From Leucoraja erinacea (lineage: Eukaryota), in NCBI RefSeq assembly GCF_028641065.1, contig NC_073406.1:6014001-6078000 (forward strand): DNA of 64,000 nucleotides, read 5' to 3'. Under the pieces are notes generated by a model. It did no database searches. It was not told the origin of the DNA and saw only the letters and a list, made by a program, of their open reading frames with translations. This document shows, one piece after another, positions 1,306-62,890 of this stretch; the stretch's first letter is position 1; each line of letters opens with the position of its first letter. The translations under genes and the position numbers were made by a program.

Positions 1306-1358
1306 CTGGTGGGAAAAAAATATTATTAGTGGCTTTGAAGAGGTGTCAGGACAGGGAG

Positions 1359-7658: not shown

Positions 7659-8515
7659 CTGAAAGGTAAGAGTCCAAAAAATAAATTAAATTCACTGTAT
7701 AATTTGATACAGAAATGTTAAACTATACTCAGTAAACTAAACTGCATCAGGAATAATGGTTTGACTATCTGCAATAAATGGATAAAGGCCAATCATGAGA
7801 TATAATACCACAACGAAGACTCTCAGCACCAAATAAATGAATGAGCGGCTCATTGCAGTTTCAGCAATTCTCAAGAGCAATAGCCTAATTTGCTCACAGC
7901 ACCCAAGTAATCCTCGACCATCTTCAAATCCCAATACAACATCTGTTCCTCATGTTGACATTTTATAAAACTGCTCAAGTATCTCTGACAGACATTGGAA
8001 GTAATGGAGGTATGTTTCGCTCGGACCCTATAATAAATTAATCATATTCATTCTGTATGATGAAGCTTTCTATGGCTAATATTGTACATTGTCTTTTACG
8101 ACAGTGACCACACTTTAATAAAAATTGGCAATAAAGTATTTTGGAATGTTCAAAAAACTGGCAAGCTGTTTATTTTCTTACATCAGTATTATCCCTAATT
8201 TACCATTCCAATTTATTTTAAATGTCTCTCAATCTTCAATTGCATCTAGTCATATTGATCTTATTTTATTCAGATGAGTAAATAACAAACAACGGTTAGC
8301 ATTTGAAAGCCTATTTTAAAGGCTGCTCGGACAGAGATCTGCAGTTTTCAGTACAAACTAATACATAACACAACCTCAGTGTTGTAGGCAGCCCTACATT
8401 TATCCACAGAACAAGAGTCACTCGACAGTGATAACACCCTGGACACTCACAAACACATGCACTAAACCCAGACAGCATTCTTTGGATGTGGTTGTAAATC
8501 TTATAAACCACTCAC

Positions 8516-8646
8516 TGAATGTGATGCAAATATTTCCTTGTAGTCAGAGATGTTGGACAGAAAGAGTGTTTCTGGGCTATCAAGATGCTCCAACAGCAGG
8601 ACTGAGCTCGAAGATGTTACCTCCTTCATCAAAATATGTCTTGAAG
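8516..8646 (-). CDS. NOL9: NOL9 coding exon 3 (131 nt)
   Basis: ttgcag|ASRHILMKEVTSSSSVLLLEHLDSPETLFLSNISDYKEIFASHS|gtgagt; phase 1 to 0, open frame. Confidence 0.88.
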
Positions 8647-8933
8647 CTGCAATAAATACAGAGATTAGGAGCACAACACCAAAATACCCCCATTAGCAAT
8701 CCTAAACTAAAATGCGAGTGTTAGACATACTCAGCAAGTCCAGCAGCATTTTTCAGAGAGAAACAGAGTCCATGTTTTAGGTTGATGACCTTTTTATCAG
8801 AACCTGAATTCAGCTAGAAAAATTAGGGAAGCGATTTCAGCTTGGCAAACCCTCTCATTCCATCCCAACAAACACATCTAGGACAGATACCAAATGGGTC
8901 AGATAAAGAGTAAAGCACTGTCAATATATTTTA

Positions 8934-9030
8934 GGTAGACAAAAATGCTGGAGAAACTCAGCTGGGTGCGGCAGCATCTATGGAGCGAAGGAAATAGGCA
9001 ACGCTTCAGGTCGAAACCCTTCTTCAGACT
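8934..9030 (-). mobile_element. Penelope-terminus-derived mini-element
   Basis: Same family sequence; TATATTTTA on both flanks. Confidence 0.75.
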
Positions 9031-9523
9031 ATATTTTAAATGTCCTTAAACTTCACAAAAAGAATGCAAACCTTGTTTTGTTTTACTTTTTATACCGTTT
9101 GGTAGCCTTCCTGGGTATCTATTTACGGCCATTACTAGTTGTCACAATAAAAGGTGCAGAATTTAGAAAAGTGTAAATCCCAGTATTATTAAAAACACTC
9201 CCAATTTTATTCTACAACAATTTCTGCTTATATGCACCCTTGCATCTTTACAGGAACATTATCAAACACAAAAGCTGCCAAGAGTAATTAAGATAATAGG
9301 TCAATATTAAGAGGTGACTTTTAAAATATTTTTTTAAAGAAGGAAACGAAACAGAGGGAGGAAAAATCCAAACCAAGATGTTTGTTAGTTGCAGAGTTGG
9401 GCACTCACACTGTAATTACATTCAGCCCAAGTGGATAAGACAGATAGTTGGGAAAAAAATTACAGAAATATGGAGGAATGAGACCACAGCAGGATTTAGA
9501 AACCCGAATAAAGATTTTAAAGG

Positions 9524-9732
9524 AAGAGAGACACAAAATGCTGGAGTAACTCAGCGGGACAGGCAGCATCTCTGGTGAGATGGAATGGGTGGTGTTTCTG
9601 GTCGAGAGAAGGGTCTTGACCCGAAACGCCACCCATTGCTTCTCTCCCGAGATGCTGCCTGTCCCGCTGAGTTACTTCAGCATTTTGTGTCTATCTTTGG
9701 TCTAAACCAGCATCTGCAGTTCCTTCCTCCAT
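9524..9732. mobile_element. Inverted (hairpin) double mini-element with 10-bp TSD
   Basis: Two inverted arms; ATTTTAAAGG at 9514-9523 and 9733-9742. Confidence 0.8.
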
Positions 9733-10066
9733 ATTTTAAAGGCAAGGTGTTATTTAACCAGGAGATAGTATGCTTGAGTATGGGTAAACAGAAGTTGATC
9801 CAAGTTAGGACATGGGCAACAACGTTTTCAGTGACCTCAAGTTCAGTGAGTGCAGAATGAGAAAGGCCATCCAGGGGTGTGCTGGAAACTTACATTTCAG
9901 CTTTGCTAAAGCCATCAGACAAGGCCCTTACAACTTGCAATAGGAATAAATTCCTACATACCCCGTGTACCACGCACCATCCTCTTGCTACACAAATGGT
10001 ACAATAGACATTTGATGCATCTGGTCTAACAACTAGTATTCCTTTCCATGGATCCCAGATCCTCAC

Positions 10067-10286
10067 CTGCTGCTACATGGTGTCGTAGAACTGATTTCAC
10101 TTCCATTTTCATCTCACGCTTCGTCAGGCCTGGTTTACAATGAGGCAGAGCCTCGATGCTCAGCGCAGCATGTGTTGGTAAAGAGTACAGATGGTATGTG
10201 GGCTGCCCCTCTCTAATTGTAAACCCAAATACCTGGACACTCCCATACAGGCATGTTACTTGACATCTTCCTCGAAAAGTCAGTAT
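10067..10286 (-). CDS. NOL9: NOL9 coding exon 2 (220 nt)
   Basis: acacag|ILTFRGRCQVTCLYGSVQVFGFTIREGQPTYHLYSLPTHAALSIEAL...|gtgagg; resembles the NOL9 N-terminal beta domain; phase 0 to 1. Confidence 0.93.
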
Positions 10287-10479
10287 CTGTGTAAATTAAA
10301 GCAACAGTGACAAGCCAAATTGAAATTCATGGTAAAAACGTGTCTTTCACTCTCAACAAGGATCACATGACATAATGTCTTATAACAGTCAATCTCTGGG
10401 CTCACAAAGAAAAAAACAACATTGGTAAAGAGCAACAAAAAGACCAGTGAGTCAATACTTCAAGGCTGGGGTGGGGGGG

Positions 10480-11580
10480 GAATGATGGATTTGTAGCCAA
10501 GTTTGCAGATGACATGATAATATGTGGAGGGAAAGATGGAGTTCTCCTTATTGCGTATGGCGTGCACAGCCTAAAGTTGTAGGACAACTTGTTCTATTTG
10601 ATCTTATTTGATTGTGCACGTCGGTTTGATTGCATTCGGCGAAACAGGGCGGACCTCGTGAAGGTTGCAATCTTCCACCCCAAAGATGGAGTTGAGGAAG
10701 CAGGGAGTCTGCAGAAGAAATTGGATAGGTTTTGGAGGGTGAACAAGGAAGTGGTGAATGGAATACAGCATAGCAAAGTGAACTATCGTGCACTTTGGTG
10801 GAAGGGCTAAAGGTGTAGACTATTATTTAAACGGGAAAATAATTCAGAAATCAGAGGGGCAAAGGGACTTGGAGGTGCTGTTGCAGGATTTGCAAAAGAT
10901 TAATTTACAGGTTGAGTCAGTAGTACAGAAGGCAAATGCAATGTTAGCATTCATTTTAAGATGACCAGAATATACATGCAAGGATGTAAAGCTGAGATTT
11001 TATAAGGTGCTGGTCAGACCATATTTGGAATATTGACTGCAGTTTTGGGTTCCATATCCGAGGAAGGAAGTGCTGGCATTGGAGAGGGTTCAGAGGTTTT
11101 GCACTCAGAGGTTTTGCACTCAGTGGGTGAGGCAGCAATCTATGGAGAGGAGGAATAGGCGACGTTTCGGGTCGAGACCCTTCTTCAGACTGATGTCTGG
11201 GGAGGGGGGAAGAAAGGAAGAAGCGGAGACAGTAGGCATGTGGGAGAGCTGGGAAGGGGATAGGAAGGAGAAAGCAAGGACTACCTGAAATTGGAGGTGA
11301 ATAAAAGGACGTTCCTTTAGAACGGAGATGAGGACGAATTTCTTTAGCTATATGGTGGTGAATCTGTGTAATTCATTGCCACAGAAAGCTGTGGAGGCCA
11401 AGTAATTGGGTATTTTTAAAACAGAGATTGATAGATTGCTGATTAGGAAGGGCATCAAAATTTACAGGGAGAAAGCGAGAGAATGGAATTGAGAGAGAAA
11501 AATAGACCAGTCATGATCAAGTGGCAGAGCACACTCTATGAGGCGAATGGTTTAATGCTGCTACTGTCTCTTATGATCTC
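10480..11580 (+). mobile_element. Degenerate CR1-type LINE RT 3' fragment with nested insertions
   Basis: VAKFADD motif; YKVLVRPYLEY..QFW.P; interrupted by a Penelope-terminus segment at ~11120-11300. Confidence 0.75.
11161..11188 (-). ncRNA. Minimal hammerhead ribozyme core (Penelope-type), intact
   Basis: Reverse complement CTGAAGA-A-GGGTC-TC-GACCC-GAAAC-GTC: CUGANGA box, 5-bp stem II, GAAA box, palindromic ACGU helix III, GUC cleavage triplet. Confidence 0.75.
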
Positions 11581-11751
11581 AGTGTTGCAGAGCACCAGTT
11601 CCAGAGGCTAAGAACAATGTTCGCAATGGGGTAGAGGCGAGTCAGACAGTACACTAGCTTTTAAAAGGACTGTTCAGAAGTCTGATAATTCAACACCGCA
11701 TGAAGGGCGAGGGGCTGAAGGAGCAAGGAGCAAAACAAAACTCTTTAATAC

Positions 11752-12330
11752 CTGTGATGGTGACATGAGGACTATACTTTGTTCATTCCCAGTGTTAATT
11801 GCAGTGAAACAAAATCTTGCATTGACTTCAGAGGATGCAGTGCCATTGTCAACAAGATCTTCAAATGGTTCACCATTGAGCCCACCATTAATTGTAAACA
11901 AGCCGGCATTCAAACACTGTTGCTCGATTCCTTCCTCTTTCTCCTCAGTTCCATTTGCCTGCTCTATTAAAGTCCTGCTCTTTTTTAATGAAATGTTGAC
12001 CTTTTCCTCCAAGTTTTGAGACGGGGGCTCAGTTTTATTTTCTTCCTTGTGTAGTTCACCAGTATTTGATTGCAGATTTTCATCATCCTCACACTTTTCT
12101 TTGGCACTTTCCCATTCAACGGCATTTATTGTGTTGTGTCTGAGGCGTGGTCTCTTCATTCTGCGGCGACAGGGGGCAAGTAAGCAGCAACGTCGCGTGA
12201 GCACGCTCAGCTGCTTGGCTCCTGAAACATCAGTCAGTACCAACATGGTCTTGCGCTTCCACCTGCGGCGCCGAGCTACTGTGGGAACAGACTGGCTCAA
12301 ACACATCCCCGCTGGATTAGTGACTCTCAT
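11752..12330 (-). CDS. NOL9: NOL9 first coding exon (193 aa, basic N-terminus followed by acidic linker)
   Basis: ATG at 12330, preceded by an acceptor (ctcaagcag, ~12357-12365). Basic clusters RRRRWKRK and RRRMKRPR. Ends ...SIVLMSPSQ|gtatta, phase 0, joining in frame to the next exon. Confidence 0.85.
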
Positions 12331-12950
12331 CTTTTGTTAGTTTCAGCACGATCCAACTGCTTGAGAGGAGAAATAACATATTTTAAAAATCAGTAATTAT
12401 TCAGCTTTCTGGTGCGTGTCTGAGTATTCAATGTGGGTGATTGACAGATCTGACAGAATGATTACATAGAAATGCAGAACCAAGAAAACGTAACGCCACA
12501 TCTCTTAAAATCCTTCTGTTTTAATCTGTTATTTTTAATTATTTGCAACAGTAATTAACCTGGTTTCAAATATTTGTTTTTGATTGCTGTCATTCAACTC
12601 TACTACCTTCTCTAAATCCATCTCTACATTTAATCAGTTTTCTCTTCCAAAACTCCATTCCCTTAGTATTCCAGCCAGCTCTGAAACCTGCTTAGTGCTC
12701 AAGGTAGTGACTTTATGCAACAGGCAATCTATAATGTGCCTACAATTAAAAGCACCGTACAATTGTTAGTAACTCTATACACCTTGATAATCCCCTAATG
12801 CACATTGCAATAAATTCCAATTATTCCTTGCTCCTATTCCTCACCTCAATCAAAAACATTTTCATATCTTGAAAACATTTACAGCAACAACCATGTTCAT
12901 TTCCCCAAACCTATTCTCTCATTGCATATAACCATTTCATACCCAGTTAA

Positions 12951-17680: not shown

Positions 17681-18403
17681 TACACCAACCACTGCTGGAC
17701 TGATCCGCTCTATTATCTTCATCAATCTGGTGCCAAAATAACAGCATTGTTACTCGAGGATTGATGTCAACGTTCTCAATGACCATGCACACCAATATAA
17801 ATTAATGTACTTAAATTAAAGTGAATGAATTAATATTGCTCTTTAACTAGGCTTCAGAACACTGTTTTTAGAAGGGTCCCGATCCAAAATGTCACCTATC
17901 CATCTTCTCCAGGGTTGCTGACTGACCTGCAGAGTTACTCCAGCACTTTGTGCCTTTTTTTAAAATCGTATTTCTTTTGTCCATTTACGGTTTTCTAATC
18001 AACGTTTGCCTTTTTTGGCTGAATTTGGTTTTTAGCAGTGGCCGCTTTTAAAAGTCGATAGAATCCGAACAGTACAAATAATAAGTTTCTTTGTGAGGCC
18101 TCCCCACCCAACAATGGGGGTTGGAGTGCACCTGAGTTTAATGTTCTTTCTCCTGCTGCCTGTTACTCAATACAAATTCTCTCCATAGGCATATAGCATT
18201 GATATCCTCCAAATGTGGAGATGTGTGGATATTTTGTCATTATTTTTGTATGTCTTCTGATTTCCCTCAGAAGGATAAAAGGTTAGTTAAACTGTTATCT
18301 AATCTATATCTATAAAGAAACAGATTTGTTCATCTGTGAAATAAATAGTAACTGTAAACCAGCACTAATTGAAAAAGTATTAAAAAGGGTATCCCTATTT
18401 CAC

Positions 18404-18677
18404 ATGGTTAAGCTTTCATCCTGTTTTTCTCCCCATTCTCTCCCTTTCTTTTTGTTTTACATGTATTTTATCCTTATGTCTTTCCTTCTCCGTTGCAAAG
18501 GAGATTCTCCGTGTTCTTCTCGTTTGCTTTGTCGGCTTAACAAAAGTGACCAAACAGATGATCAAAAGAATGCTAAAACCTTAAGTGACCAGTTTCCACA
18601 GTTCACAAATTCACTCAAAGGAACTTCTGAAATCATGGACCCTAGTCATCGAGTCTTGGGAAGAGAAGGGGAGACAG
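18404..18677 (+). CDS. ZPBP-family membrane protein, exon 1 (signal peptide plus spacer)
   Basis: MVKLSSCFSPHSLPFFLFYMYFILMSFLLRCKG hydrophobic leader; strong donor acag|gtaaga; phase 1 matches the next exon. The start could instead be a downstream Met. Confidence 0.65.
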
Positions 18678-19247
18678 GTAAGACACATCCCTTTGGCTGG
18701 TTAAAAATTCTTAAAACCCAACTTTAAATTCAAAGGCAATGCTCCTAGCCATTCCACAAATAATAGATTAAAGCTAAGTCTTTTATCAAAAACAAACATT
18801 TCCCACTTAACTAAGTGAGGTAGCTGGACATGTTTCTGCCCCCTTCCACCCTCAATGACCACTGTCCTTCACAACAATTGTTTTGAGAAAATCCTTCAAA
18901 TTCCTGTGCATTAGCTTGTCTCTAACAAAAATAAAATCTGGGGAAAAGGCTCTGGTAATTTGTGGATGGTCATTTTAAAACATTTGAGCCTAGTGTACCT
19001 TTAGCAGCCGAAAAACGTAATTGGTTACAAGATACCCCGTAGGCTGGTCCCAGAAGCTCAGGCCTCGAATGGTCGCTGTTGCTCAGGGTTAATAATGTCT
19101 GGGACTTGGTATGACATTCCATGGATGCTCTTGGAGGCACAGATGATCGAAAGATTCCGGATGCATTATTCAGGGAAATGTAGGACAATCCTTTTCAGAG
19201 TTCTGACCATTATTTCTCCCTCACCAATGTAACCAGAACAGGCTAAA

Positions 19248-19585
19248 TAGAAACATAGAAACATAGAAAATAGGTGCAGGAGGAGGTCATTCGGCCCTTC
19301 GAGCCTGCACCGCCATTCGATATGATCATGGCTGATCATCCAACTCAGTATCCCATCCCTGCCTTCTCTCCATACCCCCTGATCCCTTTAGCCACAAGGG
19401 CCACATCTAACTCCCTCTTAAATATAGCCAATGAACTGGCCTCAACTACCTTCAGTGGCAGAGAATTCCACAGATTCACCACTCTCTGTGTAAAAAATGA
19501 TTTTCTCATCTCGGTCCTAAAAGACTTCCCTCTTATCCTTAAAGTTGTGACACCTAGTTCTGGACTTCCCCAACATCGGGAATGT
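19248..19585 (-). mobile_element. CR1/HER1-type LINE 3' end
   Basis: (ATAGAAAC)n tail followed by the same 3' sequence as the copies at 15590 and 59068. Confidence 0.85.
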
Positions 19586-19877
19586 CTTTAGCACAACGGT
19601 TTGTGGGACCTTGCTGTGAAACTATGATTAAATTTCAAAATAACTTAATTGAACGCCAAGTGTTTTGAAATCCCCTGAGACCAGGAAGGGTGATTTGTTT
19701 TTCTTCAAATTTCCCTTCCAAAACATTCTCTGAAACATGGCAGCCTGGACACTACATTGACATGTGCATAGGGAGTTCCACCTTAATTAGCCTTCAAGAA
19801 AGCGTGGCATTACAAAATTGTGGATGTTATTGAAATTTATTGCAGTAAACATGCTGGTGTGTCATCTTGCCTTTCAG

Positions 19878-20009
19878 TTGAAGTTTTCATTCCTTTGAAA
19901 GGCTCTCCCGTTGCTATTTATTGTCTGACCCCAGAACTGAGTCGGAAAACCATCAGCAATCCTATGACCCACTGGTGGAGAGAGGGGAAGTCCCAGGCAC
20001 ATGTCATAG
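19878..20009 (+). CDS. ZPBP-family protein exon 2 (Ig-like domain, first half)
   Basis: tttcag|VEVFIPLKGSPVAIYCLTPELSRKTISNPMTHWWREGKSQAHVI|gtatgt; resembles the ZPBP 'VYV..SP.L.C....L....I.DP...W' pattern. Confidence 0.85.
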
Positions 20010-21225
20010 GTATGTTGGACAAAATTAGCTTGTTGGTTTCTACAGACTTTCATAAGTTTCTGCAGAATTAATTGACATCACACCCTCAGTAAAAGAAAAA
20101 GCAAATATATAATGGAGTGATAAATTATGGGAGTGTGTGAGCAAACAAAAATAATAGTAAGAATATCCTATTTGCCTCCCCAATACTCCTCATCCTGGGA
20201 AAAAGATGTCTCTTTTTTTAAAATACAATTTTGTTTGAATAGTACAAATGTTGAATCCTGATCATTAGGTTACTTTTTAGTGATGAAGGCTGGTGCCTCA
20301 ATTCTCTAACCAAGCATTAAGTTCCAACATGTCAGTATTCTATGGGTGCAAACAATTTCCCTCAACTCTTCTCTAATGCTTCAACCAATTAACTTAAATC
20401 TATGTCTCCTAATTCCTAGGAGCTTGAGCCCACAACGTCCTTGTCAAATATTATTCCAAGATAAACTAATCTTAAAACTCTCACAAAGTGCTGGAGTAAT
20501 TGAGTGGGTCAAGCAGCATCTCTGGAAGACATGGATAGTCGACATTTTGGGTAAGACCCTGCACATGATCCATATCCCTTCATTTCCATGTGCCGACTTG
20601 AAACCTCTTAAACACCATGGCAGAATTTCACTGCTTTCATATTTTGCCTTTCTGACAATAACGCCAAATATTTTGTTTGACATTTGCTTTCTTAATGCAC
20701 CTGAGATCCTTTATACTTATTAGCATTCCATTTACAATTTTCGCTCACCATTTTTGTCCTTCACAAATACATTTCTTGCAATAAGTTCCATTTGATAATC
20801 CAGATCTAGCCAGAAAATTGGGAAGATTATGACAAAACATATTTAACCTTCGAAGCAAACCGTGTTTCTCTTCTCACAGGCGTGGGCTGAGTTGCTGAGT
20901 ATTTCCAGCATTTTCTGTTTTTATTTTTTAATTTTAGCATCCGCAGGTTTCTTTGATCTTCACTGACTTTCAAGCAGCTGTTTCACTCCACGTTTGTTAA
21001 ACCGTACCTTAGAAGGGCAAAAAATGTTTACTCTTGAAACAAGATAAATCGTTGCTATAAATCTGTATCATAAGCAAAGGATTATTTTTGAATAGCAGGG
21101 CGATGGGACCAACTGGTTATTTCTTCTAGAGGACTGGCATAAGAATATTAGATCAGACAGCCTTCTACTGTTCAGTAGAATTCATTGCTTCTCTATGATG
21201 ACCCCTGCATCAACCTGTCTAGCAG

Positions 21226-21375
21226 GAGAGGGCGATCAGTACAGAGTACGGCTCGATGGGAGTCTGATGTTGCTAAACTGGGAAACTTCGCAGGCCACTG
21301 GTTTCTATTATTGCACCATGAAACACATCAGAGGCCAGAAAGAATACAGCCTCACACTCCAGTTTTGTTTAGTAG
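21226..21375 (+). CDS. ZPBP-family protein exon 3 (Ig-like domain, second half)
   Basis: GEGDQYRVRLDGSLMLLNWETSQATGFYYCTMKHIRGQKEYSLTLQFCLV|gtgagt; Ig GxYxC motif. Confidence 0.87.
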
Positions 21376-21590
21376 GTGAGTGACTCACCCCCCCCCCCTC
21401 GCCCCTCCTCCCCACCGCTCCTCTCCCCTCCCCTGGCCTCTCTCCCATCCCCTCTCTAGATAGTACATTTTTCTTTATACGTTGATTTCATTCAAACTTA
21501 TTGCAATCTGCCAGTGTTCAGCTTGTTGTTTTACGATAGAATCTTAATCCAGACAATGTTTAATATAAAATGTGTTTTCTCCTTCTCCAG

Positions 21591-21809
21591 CCTACCACAT
21601 ACCATTTCGAAGTCTCCAAGTTAATGTGCAGTTAAAAACCACAACTTGTGAAAAGCATTTTGTGGAGAATTCTGTCAAATTTCTGGAATCAGTGTTGAGC
21701 TCTATGTGTCGGCAGCTTTCCTGTGTGATAACAAGCACGACCTTTAATTGCACACAATGGGGAACATTGGCAGGCACAGTGGAACATCACATTCAGCTCA
21801 AAATCCCAG
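21591..21809 (+). CDS. ZPBP-family protein exon 4 (Sp38 domain)
   Basis: ctccag|AYHIPFRSLQVNVQLKTTTCEKHFVENSVKFLESVLSSMCRQLSCVITSTTFNC...|gtatgt; parallels ZPBP 'AYREP...RF....C...L..L...LSC......C'. Confidence 0.87.
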
Positions 21810-21989
21810 GTATGTGGACAGACTTAAAGATTGCTGCATTGCACGCCAAACAAGGCTAGCACAGTAATTCCAATGGATAAATATGTCAGTTGATGGGGAA
21901 TTGGTCTTCATGGCTCTGAATCTCTCAGCGCAGGCTTGTTTCAAGTTTATTTCCTTCCCACACAAAACTTATTTTCTTTTCCTATGCAG

Positions 21990-22066
21990 TGCAGTCACAA
22001 GGTGAAGATATAATTATGCCTTGCAAAACTGGCCAAGAGTGCCACAATGAAGAGACTTTAAGGAAG
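21990..22066 (+). CDS. ZPBP-family protein exon 5 (77 nt)
   Basis: atgcag|VQSQGEDIIMPCKTGQECHNEETLRK|gtaagg; two-cysteine mini exon, phase 1 to 0. Confidence 0.8.
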
Positions 22067-23794
22067 GTAAGGATCGTGTGGGGAATGGATTAATTCCATC
22101 ACCAAACAATACTTACAATCCATTTAATGCATTTTGTGCAAAACCGGGAGTGTTTGATGAGCTAATGAAAAGTGCTGTTTACTCTGTACTTAACTGTTGA
22201 TGTACCTGAATTTGGCATTGTACTGTGAAAGGAGATTTATGCTGTACTTGACTCATGTATACTTGGTCAGTTAGGGTTTGATTGGGCAGTATTGCTGGGC
22301 GATTGCTCTGCTTCTTACTAATCCTATGCTGTCCTAATAGATTGGGGAAACAAGTGTGAGCATGTTATTCCTTCCAATCTGTTGCAAGGATGGTTTACAA
22401 AGCGAATGAGCCTCAAGTAGATTAGTGGAACCCACAAATGTGCAAGATGTATGTCAACCCTCGCTGAATGGCCTGGTCCACTGGTGAGATCTACCCTTAG
22501 CTCATCAATTGTGAATGCTAACCCAGCTGTTCAATTGTAGCAGGAAGGTACTTTCAGGAAGGTGTTATGGACCAGAGTTATTTAAATAATGCAATTGTGC
22601 ATTCTTCTTGCTGTGTCTCTGTAGTTGAGTGCTACTTGGTTTCAGATAACAACATCAAGCCATCATAGTTGGAAATCGTGAGCCCAGTGCATATCTCAGT
22701 AGTTGGGATAGATCTCTGCTACATGTTCAGAGCTAAAAGTAATATGAATCCAGCCTCATGTGTTTAATTGTAATCCAGTTAGTCATGGTGCTGGGATTTA
22801 CCATTCTTAAAACATGCTTAGAAACAACTAGTTAATTAATTTCTGTGTGGAATTTTGGTGATAAAGGAATCATACGGAACATGACATGAATTTGCTAAAT
22901 AACATGGTTTGTATGGATTGTTTGGGGAAGACAGATTACCTCTCCTATCAACTGGTGATTAATTATTGGCATTTCCCACAACTTATCAAAACATAATGCT
23001 CAGGAATGCATGATACTTTGTACTTGTTGACTACAACGTTCGTGTGCCTATCTCAGTGCAGTTAAGACAGATGGTTGTGGGGCTTGCAACAATATAAGAT
23101 CAGAGCTTAGTACTGGAGCAATCAGCTATTTAGCCTTCCAGAGAAGCACCTCTAGTATTGGCATCCAGCAAATTGGGAGCTCAGCAACCAGTATTGGGAA
23201 TAACTGCCAGCATGGCTTCTGAAGAATTGGCCCAACCTGGTGAGAAATTGAAAGGGCTGCAGCCAAAGTGGCAATTATAGGAAAATGAACAAGCGGTATG
23301 CTTTAATTAAAGTGTACAATAAGGCACCTGGAACAATAAATGGGTATGAAATACATATGCATGAAATTTGGATTTTGAGCAACAGTGGGCAGGATAGAGG
23401 TGAGCAAGAAGTCTGAATTGTGTATTAGACTGTTATATTATGGATGTTAAAAATGTTACAGAACATAGAATAGTACAGCATCAGAACAGGCCCTTCAGCC
23501 CACAATGACTGCCGAACATGATGCCAAGACCAAATCTTCTCCATATCCCTCCATTCCTTGCACATCCATATGCCTAGCCAAAAGAATCTTAAGTGCCACC
23601 ATCATATCCGCCTCAACCCCCTCCCACAGCAACACGTTCCAGGCACCCACCTCCTCCATGCACATCTCCTCTAAATTGTGCCCTCTCACCATCTTACATA
23701 TATATGTTTATTATAAATCATAAATTATAAATCAGGGAATCGCACCTGTCAAATCTGAGCAGGGTAACTGATATACTATCTGCTTCCTTTGCAG

Positions 23795-23969
23795 GCCTTC
23801 CAGAAAATACATACATTTTTAACCCAGTCTAAGTTTGTCCTGGACACCTCTAACGATGTGCCTCCTCTCTACTATGTGGAGGGATCTTTTAAGGCAATGA
23901 AGGTGGATCACTGCCTAGCAGGGATGGGGAAGTTACTTGGGAGGAATAGACCCTGCGTGGATTGCTGTG
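23795..23969 (+). CDS. ZPBP-family protein exon 6
   Basis: ttgcag|AFQKIHTFLTQSKFVLDTSNDVPPLYYVEGSFKAMKVDHCLAGMGKLLGRNRPCVDCC|gtaaac; parallels ZPBP 'A..RI..FF..Q....LP...FV..SL....D.C.PG.G......C..CCV'. Confidence 0.9.
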
Positions 23970-24067
23970 GTAAACATTTTACTTTATTCAAATATGGTCA
24001 TGCAAAACAGTCACCACTTCTGATGAGGGAATCAAGAATACAGGGACATAATCTTATATTTAGAGTT

Positions 24068-24291
24068 TAAGAGGGAACTGCAGATGCTGGAGAATCGAAG
24101 GTTACACAAAAAAGCTGGAGAAACTCAGCGGGTGCTGCAGCATCTATGGAGCGAAGGAAATAGGCGACGTTTCGGGCCGAAACCCGACAGGGTTTCGGCC
24201 CGAAACGTTGCCTATTTCCAACGTTGCCTATTTCCTTCGCTCCATAGATGCTGCTGCACCCGCTGAGTTTCTCCAGCTTTTTTGTGTAACC
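24068..24291. mobile_element. Inverted (hairpin) double mini-element with 17-bp TSD
   Basis: Near-perfect inverted arms; ATCTTATATTTAGAGTT at 24051-24067 and 24292-24308. Confidence 0.85.
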
Positions 24292-24587
24292 ATCTTATAT
24301 TTAGAGTTGGGTTATTCAAAAAAATAGAAATATCTCCCCTCAAATTCCCGTAGGTAATGGATATTTTGTATTTATGGGATCTGGGCATTCTGGTAAGGCC
24401 AGCACTTCTTGCCCAGTCCCAAATACCCATGAGGATCCACCTCTTGAATTGCTATAGTCCTTCTGTTGAAGATACTCCTACAGTTCTGTTAAGCAGATAG
24501 ATGCAGGATTAAAACCCAGCCACAATGAAGTACCGTGCTTCCAAGGTCGAATAATGCATGCCTTGTTGGGGATCCAATAGGTGCTGA

Positions 24588-24723
24588 AGATAGACACAAA
24601 ATGCTGGAGTAACTCAGCATTGTCAATCCTTCTCTCCAGAGATGCTGCCTGTCTGGCTGAGTGACTCCAGCATTTTGTGGCTATCGTTGGTATAAACCAG
24701 CATCTGCGGTTCCTTCATACACC
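24588..24723. mobile_element. Inverted mini-element with 11-bp TSD
   Basis: ATAGGTGCTGA at 24577-24587 and 24724-24734. Confidence 0.75.
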
Positions 24724-26916
24724 ATAGGTGCTGATGTTCCCTTGTGCCGACTGCTCATGTCTGTAGGTTTGGGAGATGCTGGTAGAGTGTGGCTGGGGTG
24801 AGTAACCATATCCTGCCATTGGATTTGGGAGCAACGCTATTGGCCAGGACTTGCCGGCAGTTATTTCAACGGCTGATTTCTTACCTGTATAAAGGCAGGA
24901 AGCCAGAGTTAGTTTATGTACGAGAGGGTTCGCTGATGGGCTGAATCGCCATCAGCTCCAGAGAGAGAGAGGACCCTGCGTAAACCAAGACAAGTATTTT
25001 TTTTGTTCTCTCTCTTGCCAATAAATCTGATGTGGTCATGTAAGAGAGGGGTTCATCGATGGGCTGAGTCTTGATCAGCGCCACAGATGGAGGCAGAGAC
25101 AGAGAGACAGAGGGACAGAGAGGTGGGCTGCTGTAAACCTGACCCCGCGCATACCGAGACAGTATTGTTTTTGTTCTCTCTTGCCAATTAAACTGATTTG
25201 TAACTAAACAGACGAGTGAGCCTTTTTCTGTTCCGCTAGTCAGATCCTTGAACCTGGTCCCTTGAAACAACCTGGGACATTGCCCTGAAGGAATTCCTGC
25301 AGTGAATTCTTGGGCAGGGATGATTGACCTCTGAGGTCCACAATAGTTTTCCTTTATGCGAGGTAAAACACCAGCCACTGGAGTATTTTCCTTTTAGTGT
25401 CCATTGACTTCAGGTCATATTGAGTGACATACACTCAAAGGGCACTTTAATGTAAGGCTGTCACCTCACCTCCAGAATTCAGTTCTTTAGTCCAGGTTTG
25501 AACCTAGGCTGTGATGAGGTCAGGACTTGAGTGGTCCTGGCAAACACCAAAGTGTGCATTGACGAAGGGTTTATTGGTTAGTAAGTGCTACTTATTTACT
25601 GCTAATAGCACTGTTAATTCTCATCAAATTGTTCTATCAAAAGCAGAGATTGTGGGATTTAGTTGGGCATCAAGGAAATGCTTGTTCATACTGTATATGG
25701 CACCATTCACTAATGTGGCAGCCAATATGCATGGCAAGGTCCTCTAAACCAGCAATGTAATTAAGTTTAGATATTATGTTTGAGGGAGGTGATTGAGGAT
25801 AAGCAGAGCCATGAATATTTATACAATTATTTAATCAAACAACAGAGAAGAAGGCCAAATGGCACATGTTATCTTCAGACGGTATACCCTTGTTCATCAG
25901 ATAGCATTGAGATGGTTTTCATCTACCGGAGAGATTGAATATCTTGATTTTATATCAAATCTGCAAAAAAACATCCTCAACAATGTAGCGATGTGCTACA
26001 TCATCAGTTTAGATCATTAAAGTGTGCTGAGAATTCACAACCAAAACCCACTCAGCTGTCAGCATGAATCCAGAGTAAAAGCATGAAAATGCAACTCAGG
26101 ATAGAATGCCTTAAACAATAGTTTAAATAAATCACAGAGCATGCTTGATTGATCAGACTAATTTAATTTACAGTATAATCCTGATTGCATGCTAGCAGGG
26201 GAGAATTCACATTTCATTACCTCCAGCGTTGATTTGGCCGAATATGATAGAATCACGCAGCATGTAAACAGGCCATTAGGCCCAATTCATACATGCTGCC
26301 TAATTAGCATCCTATATTAATCTCATCGCCAGTACTTGGTCCATAAACGATTCAATTACTCTTCCAGACATTTTTTCCATTCCATCAATGACCCAGCTTC
26401 AACCACTCTCTCAGGCAATGCATTTCCGGTACACAGGTTATGTATGCCTGACTTACAGACACCCCTACATACGATCAAGCTCCCATAATATTATTAATAT
26501 AAGTTTGACGCATGTACATATGTTTGCTTCTGTGAATGGCAGAACTGGTTGCTTCCCCACTCACCAATTTTAGTATTTGTTCTTTATTACAATACTGTGG
26601 CAGTATCATTATCGCATCGTAATTTTTGCCTAGTGTCTGAAGTGCAGACAAAATCAACTTATGGATGTCTGTACAAACAGAACCTATTCATCACCCAGGG
26701 ATGGCCTGTACTTACCACTCTCTGATAAAGAAGATCATGCTCACTTCACCCTTACCCTAAACCAATGTCCTCTAGTTTTATCTATCTTTGATACGCTGAA
26801 AAGACACGAGATGAACATGAACACCTTTAGGGCAGAAAGAGATGAAAGGCCACCACATTTCCAGATGAAAAAATGGTATTAGATGTGTTGACTGACTGCT
26901 TATGCTTTTCACACAG

Positions 26917-27144
26917 TGACTTGTGGACCAGGTTCTTATAGCCCCAATGGGACATCCATCTGTATTCCATGTCCAAACAATTTTTACCAACATAGATTTG
27001 GCAGGACGCAATGCATGGCTTGTCCTCTAGGCCTTAAAACAAATGGAGAGGGAGCAATATCTTCAACTGATTGCCATAATGCTAGGATTCAAGAAAGGAT
27101 GTTGGACTTCAAATCAGAAAAGTCTAGAGTGAATGATTCAACAG
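26917..27144 (+). CDS. ZPBP-family protein exon 7 (Cys-rich ephrin-receptor-like/GCC2-GCC3 repeat plus stalk)
   Basis: acacag|VTCGPGSYSPNGTSICIPCPNNFYQHRFGRTQCMACPLGLKTNGEGAISSTDCHN...NDST|gtaata. Confidence 0.85.
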
Positions 27145-27166
27145 GTAATAGCAGGATCAATGTAAT

Positions 27167-27540
27167 GGATCTTATAGAAACATATAAAATCCTTAAAGGA
27201 TTGGACAGGCTAGATGCAGGAAACATGTTCCCGATGTTGGGGGAGTCCAGAACCAGGCGTCACAGTTTAAGAATAAAGAGTAGGCCATTTTGGACTGAGA
27301 GGAGCAAAAACCTTTTCACCCAGAGTTGTGAATCTGTGGAATTCTCTGCCACAGAAGGCAGTGGAGGTTTTCAAGAGAGAGTTAGATTTAGCTCTTAGGG
27401 CTAAAGGAATCAAGGGATATGGGGAAAAAGCAGGAACGGGGTACTGATTTTAGATGATCAGCCTTGATCATATTGAATAGCGGTGCTGGCTCGAAGGACT
27501 GAATGGCCTACTCCTGCACCTATTTTTCTAGGTTTTCTAA
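27167..27540 (+). mobile_element. CR1/HER1-type LINE 3' end
   Basis: DLIETYKILKGLDRLDAGNMFPMLGESRTR...ggcctactcctgcacctatttttcta. Confidence 0.85.
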
Positions 27541-28231
27541 TCTGCATAATATTTATACAATGCCCTGTCATCTGCTAATGAGTATTATTTTCATAACTTT
27601 ATGTGCGGAAGAGAAATAATCATATTTGACCATTATCCAGCACAGGAATGTCAATGTTTCTGATAAATCTTGTGATATAAATGATCTATTGCATGGGGCA
27701 TAGAGTGTAAAAATAGGGCAATTCTGATGCAACTTTACAAGACACTGGTAAGACCACACCTGGAGTACTGTGCATAGTTTTGGTCTTCATGTTGAATGAG
27801 GATGTGTTTGCATAAGATGCAATGCGGAGAAGTTTCGTTAGGTTGACTCCTGGGTTGGAGATGCTGAGATTGAGCAGATTGGTCTATACTCATAGGAGAA
27901 CAGAAGAATGAAGACAATGTCACTGAAATATAAGACACTGAGGGGGAATTGATGGATGGATGCTGAGAAGATATTTCTTCAGAATTTGGGTTATTCATTT
28001 CAGAGGGAGATGAGGAAGAATTCTTTGCCCGCAGAGAGCAATCAATCTGCATAAAATGTAGATGCAGTCATTGAATATTTATTCAAGGCAAAGACTGACA
28101 GATATTTAGACTAAAAGGCAGTTAAGGGATATGGTGAGAAAGCAGAATGTTAAGGCCAAGACTGGATCATCCAGGTATTAATTTAAGGGCCTATTTCTGC
28201 TCCTGTTTCTAATTTTCTTCTGTTCTTCCAG

Positions 28232-28328
28232 CTCCAAAGGACGAAAGGCACAATTCCACTCATTTCATGATAACTATTGTTGTGTGCAGTCTGGCATTCT
28301 TGGGAACCACTGCTCTAACAATATACTG
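28232..28328 (+). CDS. ZPBP-family protein exon 8 (transmembrane helix)
   Basis: Long polypyrimidine tract then ttccag|APKDERHNSTHFMITIVVCSLAFLGTTALTIY|gtgagt; phase 1 to 2; hydrophobic run of about 21 aa. Confidence 0.78.
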
Positions 28329-31022
28329 GTGAGTGAATCCTGTGATGATCAGATGTTTAATGTGAAATCTAAATGAATTTGGAAATGGTGGAAGAGATCT
28401 TCCCCAATTCTCATGAATAAGACTTGTGAGGGGGGGTGGGGGGGGGGGGGAAGAAAAATAAAGTGTTGGTTAAAAAAAAAACAAATGGAGGGCAAAACCA
28501 TAACTTGCAATCAGTCCAAAGCAACATGCAAGGGGAGATTGAAAGAGATAACTGAGGTGAAATAGAGAAGGAGGGTTGATTAGGAAATTCCAGAACGTGT
28601 ACCCAGGGAAGAGATTTTTATTGTGCCTTTTATGACCCTTATTGGTCCTCTCTGAGATCGCATGTTGTGGAATAGTGGCACTGGCAGATCAGAGCACTCG
28701 GTCCACAGCAACGTCTCATAAACAGCAGTGTGATAATGGTCTGATAATTTGCGATGTGGTTGAAGTACGTGTCAGTATAGTTTAGGATGCCATTCCGAAA
28801 TGCCCAGCTTTGTCCACACTTTTCCGTGCATCCGTGACAGCAGATAAGGACTCTGCTTATACCTCAACTTAAAAGCCAAACCTCTAACCATGCAGCATCC
28901 CACAGAACACCAGCATCTCACCTGAAGGGTCACAACCTAAAACATTGTCTGTGCATGTCCCTCCACAGATGCTGCCTAACCTGTTGAGTTCCGACAGCAG
29001 TTTGTCTTTTGGGAGCTTAGAAACTGACTGATAATGCTACCCTTATGTATTTTCAGAAGACGTTTGACAAAGTCCCACATAAAAGGCTGGTTTGAGGCCC
29101 ATGGGATAAAGGGTGAGTGGGTACATGAATGAAAAACTGAGAGCAGAAATCAATGGCAAAGGTTGTATTTCAGTTTGGAGAAGGGTGGAAGTTTTCCAGC
29201 AGTCAGTGAAAGAAGCATTTTATTTTCATGATGTGGAATATGAAAGGTCACATTTCAAAATTGATCTTCTTAAAATATTGAGGTGTGGAAAACAATGAAG
29301 CCAATAATTGTCAATAAGAGGAAATAGATTCAGTGGCAACATGATTGACATGACAGATACAATTTAATACCAAGAACCATGATGAGAAAAAAAACCGACT
29401 AATGGTGTTAAAATAATGGTCATGATATATGCACCACTCTAACACGTTTTAGAAATTCTATAAACAGTACAAACTTCAATTGCAAAGTTCCTGTTGGGTT
29501 CCTTGTTCGATACGCTCACTTTACTCAACTCATTCCCTGCTCTGCCCGTTTCCATCTCCTACCCAAAATTCACAAACAGGACTGCCCATGATAGACCCTT
29601 TGTTTCTGCCTTCTCTTGCCCCACCAAACTCATGCCCCCACTCTATCTTGCTGCCCCCTTGTCAACTCCTCACATGCTCCCCACCACTTCAAGAACTGGC
29701 AATTCCTTGGCCTCCGTTGCCTCATCTTTACCGTGGATATCCACTCCAGGTCCTTTACACTTCTATTCTCCATCAGAAAGGAGTCAGGCCCTCCGTTTCT
29801 TCCTATTACAGATACACAACTAGCTCCCCTTAATTAACACCCTCCTCTGCCCAGCTGAACCCGTCTTCACCCTCAACTTCTTTTCTTTTGTTTCCTCTCA
29901 CTTTCTTCGAATCAAAGTCTGAAGAAGGGTCCCGACTCGAAATATCACCTTTCCACATTCTCCAGAGATGCTGCCAGATCCACGGAGTTACTTCAGCACT
30001 TTGCGTCTTTTGAAAATAAAAATAGCATGGGCCCAAGCTCAGCCTATAGTTTCATTGTTACCATTCCTCAACCTTTTCTCCCGTATATCGCCGACTGCTC
30101 CTGTACCCATGCAGATCTCCTCAATTTTATCAACCCTACCACCAGCTTCCACCTCGGCCTCAAATTCTCTTGAACTATGTCTGACACCTCTTTTCCTTTC
30201 TTGATCTCTGTCTCCATTTCAGGAGACCTATTATTCCTAAACATAGAAAATAGGTGCAGGAGTAGGCCATTCGGCCCTTCGAGCCAGCATCACCATTTAA
30301 TATGATCATGGCTGATCATCCAAAATCAGTACCCCGTTCCTGTATTTTTGAGTGCTATCTCTTTCAGTAGCAAAATTCAGGGATTAATAAAAGCTGTGAA
30401 AAAAACTAAGAATTGTTGTTTTTAAATCAGACCAGAAAGCTTTTTAGTTTAGTTGAGAGTTAAGAGTCAATTTCTTAAGGGGTGCCAAGACACTTGGAAA
30501 TGTGTCCATTGAGAGTCAAGCTGATCCACTGCGCTACTGTGCCACCTTGTGTCTCAGTGCAGGTCCTAGAGGGCATGGAAGAGATTCAATAGAACAATTC
30601 ATTAAAAAAAGAAATTCAGCTAATCCTCCTTTGAGCAAAGAAGAGTGAGGAGATTTGATATAAGTGTACAGGATTATGGTGGATTCAGATAGGGTAAATT
30701 GAAGGCAGCTTCTTATCACCAACACGTTTCAAATTGAGAAGGTTCAGATTAAAACTAATGGGTAAAGGTGCAGGAGGGATCAGGGGTGGTTGAAAAAAAC
30801 CCCCTTCATTTTCAAAGATAGAGAGTATTGATGATCTGGAAATTGTAATGGACTTTCCAACGTGGGTATGGAGGAATGGAACCGAATTAATTGTTTGAAA
30901 GGGATCTTTTTCATTAATGGTTATAATGTCTGGTATAAGTCTCGAATGGGCAACCTTTGATTCAACAGAGCAGAAATCGGCAATTGATAGCTAAGTTGCT
31001 GACTACACTCAGATGGTAAAAT

Positions 31023-31326
31023 CAGGGGCGGATTAACCATTAAGCAGACTAGGCACGTGCTTAGGGCACCAGGGCCAAAGGGGGCACCACAAAGTTGGGA
31101 AAAGGGTGAAAAGAAAAAAAAAAAAACAGATGAAGATTTGTAAATGAAGATAAAACTAGTGCAAATTGATCATAATGTTCTGTTTCTTGATCATGGTGCA
31201 CCCTAGGGTTATCTTCCCAGGTGTACCACAAGGTCAACAACTAAAATGGACTGGTCAGTGTGGAAAGGAGGAGGGCGCCAAGATTGGTCAGTGCTTAGGG
31301 CACCAGTGAGCCTTAATCCGCCCCTG
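31023..31326. mobile_element. Non-autonomous hAT element
   Basis: TIR CAGGGGCGGATTAA / TTAATCCGCCCCTG; perfect 8-bp TSD GGTAAAAT at 31015-31022 and 31327-31334. Confidence 0.88.
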
Positions 31327-31806
31327 GGTAAAATAGCTATCAACATCCAGACAATTTTTATAGCACGCTTCCAGTGTCCTACTGGTAAATAAAATCAACA
31401 AGCTTCAACATATGGAGGTACAAGAGACTATAGGTGCTGGAATCTGAAGCAACAAACAATATGCTGGAAGAACTCAGCAGCTTGAGAAGAATGTGGGAAC
31501 GGTAAGGAATTCTCGACATTTCAGGTCAAAACCCTCCATCAGGGCAGAATGGAAAATGAAGACACTCATGGTAAAGAGGAGAGAATAAGGGGCGAGACAG
31601 AGCCAGAAGGTGATTTGCAGACTAAGGAGGACTGAAGGTTGACAGGCAGATGGAGGCAGGTAGTGAGTGAAGTGCAGGTGCAACAGGGACAGGTCCTTAT
31701 CCTCCCAAAACATCAGATATCTCCAAATATTTGATTCCCATCTTGGTCACCTTGTATCCCTAAACTGTCAAATATTCCAGTAATCCTTGTGTCCGTATGT
31801 TTGCAG

Positions 31807-31963
31807 CCTGGTGACATTCCTATGCAAGGATAAGGATGCCACTGCCAATCAGCCTGCACTTAGAGTGAAGGAGACGGAAAATGCAAACCTGAAAAACATC
31901 AGATCTTCCACACACCACATGCCAATGAAAGCAGATCAGAACAGGGGAACGTGGTTCAAATAA
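31807..31963 (+). CDS. ZPBP-family protein terminal exon (end of TM, cytoplasmic tail, stop)
   Basis: ttgcag|CLVTFLCKDKDATANQPALRVKETENANLKNIRSSTHHMPMKADQNRGTWFK*; phase 2 fits exon 8; AATAAA 5 nt after the stop. Confidence 0.68.
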
Positions 31964-31968
31964 CAAAG

Positions 31969-31974
31969 AATAAA
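31969..31974 (+). terminator. Candidate polyadenylation signal of the ZPBP-family gene
   Basis: AATAAA immediately downstream of the predicted TAA stop at 31961-31963. Confidence 0.45.
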
Positions 31975-34900
31975 AGCAGCATTAATTGAGAGCAACATGA
32001 ACAGAAGGCGAGCAGCTGACCTCGGAGAGATAAAAAAAACTGCAGGAGAACACAGCTGGGACAAAGCAGGAAAACAAAGAACAAGAATTTACAAGGGATA
32101 CAATGGCGAGTGTTCAGGAGGTGGAGCTAGCAGAGAGCAACAAAATGAAAGAAGCTCTTCTGCGCGCGAGTGTGTGCGTGCGTGTGCGTGTGTGTGTGTC
32201 TCCGTCCGTCCTTTGTATATTTCTGTTGCCATATGGTTGCATGGATATGGCCATATTGTTCTGTCAATGTTTGTGTGGCTGTATTGAGAGCATTTGTGTG
32301 CTTGGTCTCTCCCCATCTGTGTGTGATTCTCTGTAACTCTGATATATATGTGTCTATGTGTCACTCTGTATATATATATATATATATGTCCGTGAATGGG
32401 TATGTGTGCATGTTTGGGACTAAATGTACAAATTTGTGGAAACTTCTGAGTGGGCTTGGGAGTATTTTTTACTATTTGCCTTTGTTCAGTTAAGAATTGA
32501 GAGGGGTAAGCAATGAGTCCTGTTAGATATTCTCCTCTAATGTGGATAATTCCAGGAGCTCAGAGAGAGAGAGAGAGAGGAAAATAAATTGAAACTTATA
32601 CAAAGAATGGTTTGGAAATTCTGCTTTTTAATTTCAAGCCAAACCTTTTTCCTGGAGTGGAAATGTCCAACACTAGAGGGCGTAGCTACAAGGTGTGAGG
32701 GAGAAGGTTCCAATGGTGATGTGTCGGGCAAGAGTGGTGGGGGCCTGGAATACATTGTCGGGAGTGGTGGTGGTGGTGGCAGATATAGTCATAGAGTGAT
32801 ACAGTGTGGAAACAGGCCCTTCGGACCAACTTGCCCACAATGGCCAACAATGTCCCAGCTACACCAGTCCCACCTGCCTGCGCCTGGTCCATATCCCTCC
32901 AAACCTATCCTATCCATGTACCTGTCCAACTGCTTCTTAAACAATGGGATGGTCCCAGCCTCAACTACCTCCTCTGGTAGTTCTGTTCATGGTTTCCCCT
33001 CAGATTCCTATTAAATCTTTTCCCCTTCACCGTCAACCTATGTCCTTTGGTTCTCGATTCCCCTACTCTGGGCAAGAGGCATCTGTGCATCTAGCAAGAG
33101 ACTCTGACTATGGGAACCGACCTGCCAGCTCCGACCAGACCTGAATTCCAGAGCCCCGGTCTCTGGCATCAAATTCGACCCACCAATCGCGCAGAAGTCC
33201 CGATGAGGTCAAGATTGGCTGCCTCACCCATCCTAGGCACCACAATTTCAGGGGGACTCGGGGTAATTTTGTCTGGGTTAAAGTTGCAGGAAAATCGGAG
33301 GTGGACCTGTATTATACTCAGTGTCTTCATGCAAGTCATCGATAAAGATTGCAAATAGCTGACGTTCAAACATGGTTCCTTGCTGTACCCCAGTGGTTGC
33401 CACGTGCCAAGACAAAAAATACCCCTTTATTTCTAGTCCGGTTTCTGTCCAATCAACCCTCAATCTAAGAGATTAAATTGAGCATCAAATGCAGGTTAAC
33501 CATAAACCTGTAATTACAGATTCAACATCGATTTTCCTGCACCCTTGTTTCTAGAGAATTTCTGATTAATCGATTTTCTGGACCAACAGAGGTCACGTGA
33601 CACCCATGGTCCTCTAATGCCACCCCTCCTGTTTCTCTAAAGCACCGTGGTGTGCCAGAAATGTAAATAAAACAAATATAAAATGTAAACTGAATGTGAA
33701 CTGTTGTTGTAACAGCTGGGGAGAGTGCTTTCTTCGCCCCCCCCCTCTCCCTCCCACCACCCACGCCCCGTCCTCCTCTTTCCTCCTGGAGCCGCCAACA
33801 GACTCCATCTTGGGAGTGACAGCAAGTGAGAGGGGAGAAGGCCCAAGGTGTCTGAGTGTTTTCTGTGTGTGGGGGCCCCACTGAAGCACTGTTCCCGGGG
33901 AGGGTGGGGCTACAACGCGAGCCGCTACAACAGCCTGTGGACCAGTGGTGTCAGAAGCTGGGGCTCTACATGGCCGGGGAGACGGTGTGGGCCGGGGATG
34001 GGTCGGCAGGTCTGTCCGCTATATCCGACATCTGTTATAGAGGGGTTGTTGAAACAAGGGTTTGCAGTATTGCCTTTACGAAAGAGTTTGGAGAGAATAT
34101 TGAGGGAATAGTTGATTCTTTGACGACCAGAAAGAGCACTCGCCACTCGCAATGCCACCTGTGGGCGCTTAGGGAATTGCAACTGAGCTCTCGTAATTTT
34201 TCCAGATCATAGGGATGGGTGCCGGAAAATTGGTGTTCAAGCTGTAGTACATCTGCCTTCCTTCCTGCCCAATCTATGACCAATAATATAAAATATAAAA
34301 AGTGTAGAGGATATCCTGTAAATCATTAGAGATTAATGTGGGGTTATAGAACCGAGTTAAGAAAGACAGATAACTCTTCATAGTGGGTGAGCACTCTTGA
34401 GTAAGTATGATAAGAAAAACTGAACAGATTAGAATAAAGCCAGGTTGATGGGAGCAGGGCAGATGAATGGCAACATAATCAAGAGAGAAGATGATAGGAA
34501 AAAGCTAAAACGGGAAAACCTTGGAAACAATGAGAACTGAATGTTAACGGATCAGCATAATTAGGGGGTCAAGTCTTGTGGTTGTTGAGTTAAGAAATAA
34601 TTTGCTGTAAATATGGATAAAAGTACTGTACTAATTGCTGATGGAAGTGTGAACGGGCACTGTGCTAGGAAAGAATGAGGCAATGGTCAGACCAGGACAT
34701 ATGAGGTCACCTGGATGGCTTGGTGTTCTGGGCAATCTGACTTTGTTTTCATTCACTTGACTTGCAAAAAGAGCATTCACTCCCAATGGGATCAAACAGT
34801 TGGAAAAGTGGCTCATGTTCAAAACGTTACAACATTTTCAAATATTTATTAACTAACATGGAAATGATTAAACAATTTATTATGTACTAACATTTCTTGC

Positions 34901-62879: not shown

Positions 62880-62890
62880 GTAACTGAATA

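Follow-up and report, generated by a model that had tools for sequence, protein, structure and literature searches.

A putative membrane-anchored ZPBP-family gene of the skate Leucoraja erinacea and its bearing on the origin of soluble ZPBP1 and ZPBP2

A stretch of 64,000 nucleotides from the skate Leucoraja erinacea (contig NC_073406.1, positions 6,014,001 to 6,078,000 of the forward strand; hereafter the window) contains a gene of the ZPBP (zona pellucida-binding protein, Sp38) family whose predicted product carries a transmembrane (TM) helix and a cytoplasmic tail behind the Cys-rich region in which the soluble proteins ZPBP1 and ZPBP2 end. Sequence comparisons confirm that this gene (hereafter the C30 gene) is real, intact and conserved in cartilaginous fishes. 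In our estimation, the chances are about even that it represents an ancient family of membrane-anchored ZPBP receptors in vertebrates, with at least three lineages in jawed vertebrates and members in lamprey and annelid, from which ZPBP1 and ZPBP2 arose through one truncation in exon 7; the chondrichthyan lineage would then provide an acrosomal anchor or a receptor for the egg envelope.

The gene is composed of nine exons, all with AG/GT ends and with intron phases 1,1,1,1,0,1,1,2 (Table 1), that splice to an open reading frame (ORF) of 1509 nt, corresponding to 502 amino acids and a stop codon. The RefSeq protein XP_055515251.1 ('zona pellucida-binding protein 1-like isoform X2 [Leucoraja erinacea]') matches residues 78-502 letter for letter, with identical joints between exons 7 and 8 and between exons 8 and 9 and a later start at residue 78; the gene model, including its TM segment, had thus already been annotated automatically. 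The exon structure and ORF length proposed in a sequence-only reading of the window agree with these results, and the motifs quoted there were all found in the sequence. That reading ended the gene at 31974, where the AATAAA hexamer indeed ends, but the stop codon ends at 31963. Exon 1 is supported by full-length shark orthologs with hydrophobic N-termini and by the linker, which is identical to that of Heptranchias at 37 of 58 residues; exon 2 is absent from one Heptranchias model, and exon 3 has additional in-frame acceptors at 21223 and 21229. Hydropathy (Kyte-Doolittle, 19-residue window) peaks at residues 11-31 (1.8) and 428-457 (2.1), which, together with conservation, predicts a type I topology with a signal peptide and one TM helix.

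Ten shark and ray records were retrieved besides that of the skate itself, nine of which keep the TM segment and the tail, with 18-23 of 29 TM residues and 19-26 of about 41 tail residues identical in the orthologs; this conservation and the second hydropathy peak agree with the C-terminal helix and the tail of about 45 residues predicted earlier. Three word-index searches yielded cartilaginous fishes only, the wider members of the family coming from a profile search (see below). The record from Callorhinchus, 45% identical, groups with the clade of the skate gene. Exon 7 is absent from three of the ten ortholog records (Hypanus and two Chiloscyllium), which join exon 6 to exon 8, as is possible because the phase of exon 7 is symmetric. 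The product of these RefSeq models would keep the anchor but lose most of the Cys repeat, through either exon skipping or annotation error.

A soluble ZPBP-like product would be expected if exons 8 and 9 lay outside the main transcript, or if the gene were a copy in decay. Four ortholog records are without TM (Callorhinchus, Mustelus and two Scyliorhinus pieces), and no spliced read was seen in RNA runs that carry no weight on splicing: four runs over window positions 18000-33000 were dominated by intronic repeats, with no exon joint among the joints listed, no RNA record turned up for 26800-28400, and 28180-28390 yielded one unspliced read pair from one run, three runs being empty. We nevertheless regard this explanation as very improbable: exon 7 ends at a GT donor with the frame open, TM and tail are kept in nine other species, RefSeq joins the same exons, and a paralog of the skate genome (the C2 gene, see below) has a TM exon with the same 1-to-2 phases as exon 8. 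In a chance control, a filter for phase 1-to-2, strong splice sites and a hydrophobic end, chosen after both exons were known, retained only two candidate exons in 1,208,000 strand-bases: exon 8 and its counterpart in the C2 paralog.

Homology with ZPBP is collinear and extends across the entire soluble protein. The alignment (hhalign) of a skate soluble ZPBP with the anchored gene has a probability of 99.6 (E 6e-25, 312 columns, 22% identity) and stops at the equivalent of Cys375, whereas the anchored protein runs 127 residues further, through the predicted TM helix. In Pfam searches, Ephrin_rec_like matched residues 348-395 (E 1.5e-13), overlapping a match to EGF_Sp38_C at residues 324-375 (E 9e-5). 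Of the domains expected from the earlier reading, Ephrin_rec_like was thus recovered, but the Sp38 models scored just below their cut-offs, with 21.5 bits against 23.1 (E 2e-4) for the immunoglobulin (Ig) domain PF07354 and 22.8 against 24 (E 9e-5) for the C-terminal Cys domain PF20626. Because the alignment ends at Cys375, inside the Ephrin_rec_like match, soluble ZPBPs stop within the Cys repeat, and the part added in the anchored protein therefore comprises only residues 376-395 (with two Cys), the stalk, the TM helix and the tail. What had been described as an extra full Cys repeat is a repeat common to soluble ZPBPs, merely completed here by about 20 residues.

The profile search covered 1.84 billion representatives and listed 150 matches; the 71 examined here were either short or matched past the Cys repeat, and long multi-repeat proteins were excluded. 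A TM-like stretch lies behind the Cys region in 20 of these ZPBP-type representatives, while three have a completed repeat but no TM and four a hydrophobic stretch elsewhere. The ten anchored proteins that we looked up include members from Hemitrygon/Hypanus, Pogona, Latimeria, Petromyzon/Lampetra, Erpetoichthys (two), Vipera/Crotalus and Owenia. Anchored relatives are mostly labelled 'ZPBP1-like' or 'ZPBP2-like' and contain Sp38 and Ephrin_rec_like domains; 52 chordate proteins that cluster in the ESM Atlas share the set Sp38, EGF_Sp38_C and Ephrin_rec_like. The occurrence of anchored forms in lamprey, bichir and annelid speaks against a special link between the anchor and internal fertilisation, as had been suggested from the skate sequence. 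A literature search, with subscription papers and bioRxiv supplements outside its scope, found no description of membrane-anchored ZPBPs, and this variant is automatically annotated yet apparently undescribed. The presence of anchored models in RefSeq limits the novelty of our observation, and the role proposed below is drawn by analogy.

We built a tree of 43 sequences (36 of the 71, fragments having been dropped, and 7 skate or ortholog sequences) from only the ectodomain shared with the soluble forms (277 columns, LG+G4), rooted on Owenia. The 17 sequences of both soluble groups form one clade (100/100 for the Shimodaira-Hasegawa-like approximate likelihood ratio test and the ultrafast bootstrap), which is nested among anchored lineages. 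The clade of the C30 gene (99.6/100) contains cartilaginous fishes only and branches first among vertebrates, a position that possibly reflects its long branch. A second anchored clade unites the skate C2 gene with Pogona (91.7/94), and a third unites coelacanth, bichir and snakes (92.8/90). Because the soluble clade nests among anchored lineages, the membrane anchor is likely ancestral and the soluble mammalian ZPBP1 and ZPBP2 shortened descendants, in line with the ancestral layout that the sequence-only reading had considered. That the anchor was lost once is the most parsimonious view, dependent on the root: the ancestor of the soluble proteins would have arisen a single time, through a stop within exon 7 that took away the final Cys pair, the TM helix and the tail.

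In calling the two soluble groups ZPBP1 and ZPBP2, we follow the RefSeq label and the synteny of mammals. Forcing the C30 clade into ZPBP1 cost 17 log-likelihood units (approximately unbiased (AU) test 0.031 in a fast search, 0.078 in a fuller one), and forcing it into ZPBP2 cost 18 units (AU 0.026 and 0.042). We discarded orthology with ZPBP2 on these AU values and because another skate gene (C27) occupies the ZPBP2 place. The earlier distinction of the skate gene from a plain ZPBP1/2 ortholog already annotated with this architecture holds in part: it lies outside the soluble clade in the best tree, but its architecture was already annotated automatically.

A search of the skate genome with PF07354, PF20626 and the skate ZPBP protein detected three further genes (Table 1). 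With two anchored and two soluble genes, the C30 gene is therefore not simply the 'third paralog' that it had been taken for. The intronless C26 gene groups with the ZPBP1-type clade and is kept in two other skates; exons 2-7 of the C30 gene correspond to the soluble C27 gene in intron positions and phases. Pairwise identity among the four paralogs ranges from 23 to 39% (243 columns), the C30 gene being the most divergent (23-27% to the other three), and a tree of the four paralogs allowed no choice among its three topologies. The mammalian ZPBP1 locus adjoins SPATA48/IKZF1 and the ZPBP2 locus GRB7/IKZF3. In the skate, SPATA48 is located at C2:60.37 Mb, whereas the anchored gene sits on C30 between NOL9 and MXRA8, and it is the soluble C27 gene, not the anchored C30 gene, that has a GRB7/10/14-type BPS match 130 kb away. 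Collinear homology, the separate clade and the NOL9-MXRA8 position support the view of a ZPBP-family gene distinct from ZPBP1 and ZPBP2, at another locus. No ZPBP remnant was detected in 200 kb on one side of SPATA48 (C2:60.38-60.58 Mb); since no spliced ZPBP was found there, the intronless C26 gene may be a retrocopy that replaced its parent gene.

The C2 paralog has a tail of about 130 residues, is 80% identical to a Hemitrygon protein and groups with a Pogona protein; the profile of its tail also matches the lamprey protein (E 2e-8). About 35 kb upstream of this paralog, IFT57 is weakly matched, at a score under the cut-off.

Several results count against an ancestral anchored family to which the C30 gene belongs. 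With AU 0.078 in the fuller search, the C30 clade is not rejected as ZPBP1 orthologs, and neither are its placements as sister to ZPBP1+2, to the second or to the third anchored clade (AU 0.46, 0.26 and 0.22); the root itself depends on three long-branched outgroups. The Cys region is not reached in the Callorhinchus and Mustelus records, and annotation splits the Scyliorhinus gene into two pieces without TM. The C30 tail shows no clear similarity to that of the C2 clade, and is shorter. Moreover, the function of the C30 gene may have drifted, because the Sp38 models score below cut-off and its identity to the paralogs is low.

An AlphaFold2 model from 26 rows, without residues 1-77, reached a mean predicted local distance difference test (pLDDT) score of 60.2 and a predicted TM-score (pTM) of 0.40, with pLDDT below 50 in the Cys region; a first model from 11 sequences (pLDDT 37.9) gave no usable structural match. 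In the numbering of the modelled sequence, residues 10-112 match Ig domains (4dep_C, Z 11.4, root mean square deviation (rmsd) 2.1, 96 aligned), and ferredoxin-like folds are matched by residues 111-246 (1j27_A, Z 9.7, rmsd 2.9, 98 aligned; 5o5j_F, Z 9.0, rmsd 2.8, 90 aligned). 'SEA-like' in Table 1 is our own label for this fold class; Pfam SEA had no match in the skate protein, nor did an ESM Atlas search with the middle domain give one. IZUMO1 and SPACA6 have an N-terminal four-helix bundle that precedes the Ig domain. Here, the linker before the Ig domain has 58 residues, which is short for such a bundle, the segment 1-77 being outside the model; the lack of SEA, IZUMO1 or SPACA6 chains among the structural matches listed carries no weight as evidence. 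In exon 4, a Gly-Thr-hydrophobic stretch (window 21760-21800), in the loop before a ferredoxin-like strand, resembles the known SEA self-cleavage site; it is a weak lead, with Gly in 8 of 10 rows and Asp in the other 2, and it is not kept in the paralogs.

Foldseek lists the N-terminal region of alpha-dystroglycan (E 1.8e-5), CDH23 EC25-MAD28 and PCDH15 EC10-MAD12 as matches. Together with the anchored relatives in annelid and the divergence of the C30 gene from its skate paralogs, these matches would fit a somatic cell-surface receptor for adhesion or matrix, with Ig and ferredoxin-like domains (dystroglycan- or protocadherin-MAD-like) and without a role in sperm. However, with an rmsd of 15-18 and, over the query, TM-scores of 0.14-0.18, they show domain order only, and the family members characterised in the sources consulted are sperm proteins (PMC7827414, PMC6186287, PMC12435281), which makes a somatic role rather unlikely.

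The C30 gene may well act in sperm as an acrosomal-membrane tether, a case that we hold to be evenly balanced, the ZPBP family being the sole basis for a sperm role. Mammalian ZPBP1 is located on acrosomal membranes and matrix and binds the zona pellucida (ZP); without it, the acrosome is disrupted (PMC7827414, PMC6186287, PMC12435281), in particular its compaction, the mouse knockout phenotype being one of acrosome assembly (PMC6186287). Chondrichthyan sperm are reported to have an acrosome and teleost sperm none (PMC8812575), and Sp38 is reported from elephant shark and human, not from teleosts (PMC1845163). A 'ZPBP2-like' protein, which may be the anchored or the soluble form, is listed for sperm of Acipenser ruthenus (XP_058862561.1, 140 tandem mass spectrometry counts; PMC11291920, supplement file 4, row 216). 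By analogy, the skate protein would enter the endoplasmic reticulum and Golgi of spermatids and sit in the acrosomal membrane with its ectodomain in the lumen, where it might hold and compact the acrosomal matrix, possibly together with soluble ZPBPs. Once the acrosome has reacted, the anchored protein would come to face the egg envelope.

As an alternative to a structural tether in acrosome biogenesis, the protein could be a receptor for the egg envelope in gamete recognition, on the sperm plasma membrane or after the acrosome reaction. Its predicted layout, in which a single TM helix and a stalk carry an Ig domain at the N-terminus, would suit such a receptor. Species-recognition proteins often change fast, however, whereas this ectodomain is well kept across sharks and rays (73-81 of 94 Ig-domain residues identical). 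The term secondary ZP-binding protein used for mammalian ZPBP1 (PMC7827414), and the distribution of Sp38 just cited (PMC1845163), would favour recognition, but the mouse knockout defect lies in acrosome assembly (PMC6186287), and we consider a recognition receptor unlikely.

If the anchored form is ancestral, the ZPBP family would consist of old membrane proteins with a soluble branch that arose once, and the chondrichthyan lineage would show what the soluble mammalian ZPBPs had to replace; no TM is seen in the soluble clade, yet ZPBP1 is found on acrosomal membranes. ZPBP1 has been linked to human globozoospermia. The role of the anchor is directly testable, since anchored forms exist in lizards, snakes, bichirs and skates. 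Several distinct lineages go unrecognised under the database names 'ZPBP1-like' and 'ZPBP2-like', which could lead work on gene loss or on sperm proteomes astray.

The neighbours named in the sequence-only reading are corroborated by domain matches on either side of the gene. NOL9 domains lie upstream, head to head with it, on the minus strand (window 195-440 and 10029-10295), and an MXRA8 exon lies at window 62717-62884 on the plus strand (E 6e-24). NOL9 appears to span window 195-12336 on the minus strand. A further V-set exon is found at L043:2854-3360. Just beyond the window, at L043:4485-9999, there are reverse-transcriptase ORFs with a weak match to a tyrosine recombinase, which probably belong to a DIRS-type retroelement. 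An Rfam search of the window gave no match.

Table 1. Features of the C30 gene (window positions) and further ZPBP genes of the skate genome
Feature	Coordinates	Strand	Remarks
Exon 1	18404..18677	+	Start codon, predicted signal peptide (about residues 1-33), linker (residues 34-91)
Exon 2	19878..20009	+	Ig (Sp38) domain, first half; Pfam Sp38 E 2e-4, slightly below cut-off
Exon 3	21226..21375	+	Ig domain, second half; Ig fold match Z 11.4
Exon 4	21591..21809	+	Predicted ferredoxin-like (SEA-like) middle domain begins
Exon 5	21990..22066	+	Middle domain, Cys pair
Exon 6	23795..23969	+	Middle domain ends; Sp38 C-terminal Cys region begins
Exon 7	26917..27144	+	Completed GCC2/GCC3 (Ephrin_rec_like) Cys repeat and stalk; Pfam E 4.7e-15; symmetric phase 1-1
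Exon 8	28232..28328	+	End of stalk, most of predicted TM helix; phase 1 to 2
Exon 9	31807..31963	+	TM end, predicted cytoplasmic tail of 45 residues, stop
AATAAA, candidate polyadenylation signal	31969..31974	+	5 nt 3' of stop; seen in sequence
Soluble ZPBP1-type gene	C26:6111035-6112057	+	Intronless, intact, 341 residues, RefSeq XP_055512039
Soluble ZPBP2-type gene	C27:534208-544772	-	Spliced, stop within exon 7 equivalent
Second anchored ZPBP gene	C2:47527891-47596038	+	Nine exons by comparison with stingray ortholog; completed repeat

Among known proteins, vertebrate ZPBP1 (sp38/IAM38) and ZPBP2 share with the C30 protein the signal peptide, the Sp38 Ig domain, the middle domain and the Cys region, whereas the C30 protein adds two Cys, a stalk, a predicted TM helix and a tail, has 23-27% identity and falls in a separate clade; the skate soluble genes, separate from the C30 gene, fall into the two soluble clades. 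Anchored ZPBP-like proteins with the same domain set followed by a TM-like stretch are XP_072910554 of Hemitrygon, XP_072860011 of Pogona and XP_064414388 of Latimeria, and likewise, with Sp38, EGF_Sp38_C and Ephrin_rec_like, XP_032831533 of Petromyzon and XP_051791188 of Erpetoichthys. These relatives fall in other clades, the C30 gene being 23% identical to the skate (C2) member of one of them; the C30 lineage has been found only in cartilaginous fishes, and its tail is shorter and without clear similarity to theirs. The order of a beta-sandwich followed by a ferredoxin-like domain, predicted here, also occurs in the alpha-dystroglycan N-terminus, the PCDH15/CDH23 EC-MAD regions and SEA-domain proteins, but a search of the PDB revealed no sequence similarity to such Ig/cadherin plus ferredoxin-like ectodomains, and the resemblance is one of fold class only. 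In sequence searches, the Cys region of exons 6-7 matches thyroglobulin (E 6e-10) and ELAPOR1 (E 0.008); compared with thyroglobulin type-2, ELAPOR1 and Eph GCC2-GCC3 repeats, the skate protein has a single repeat, and the remainder of these proteins is unrelated.

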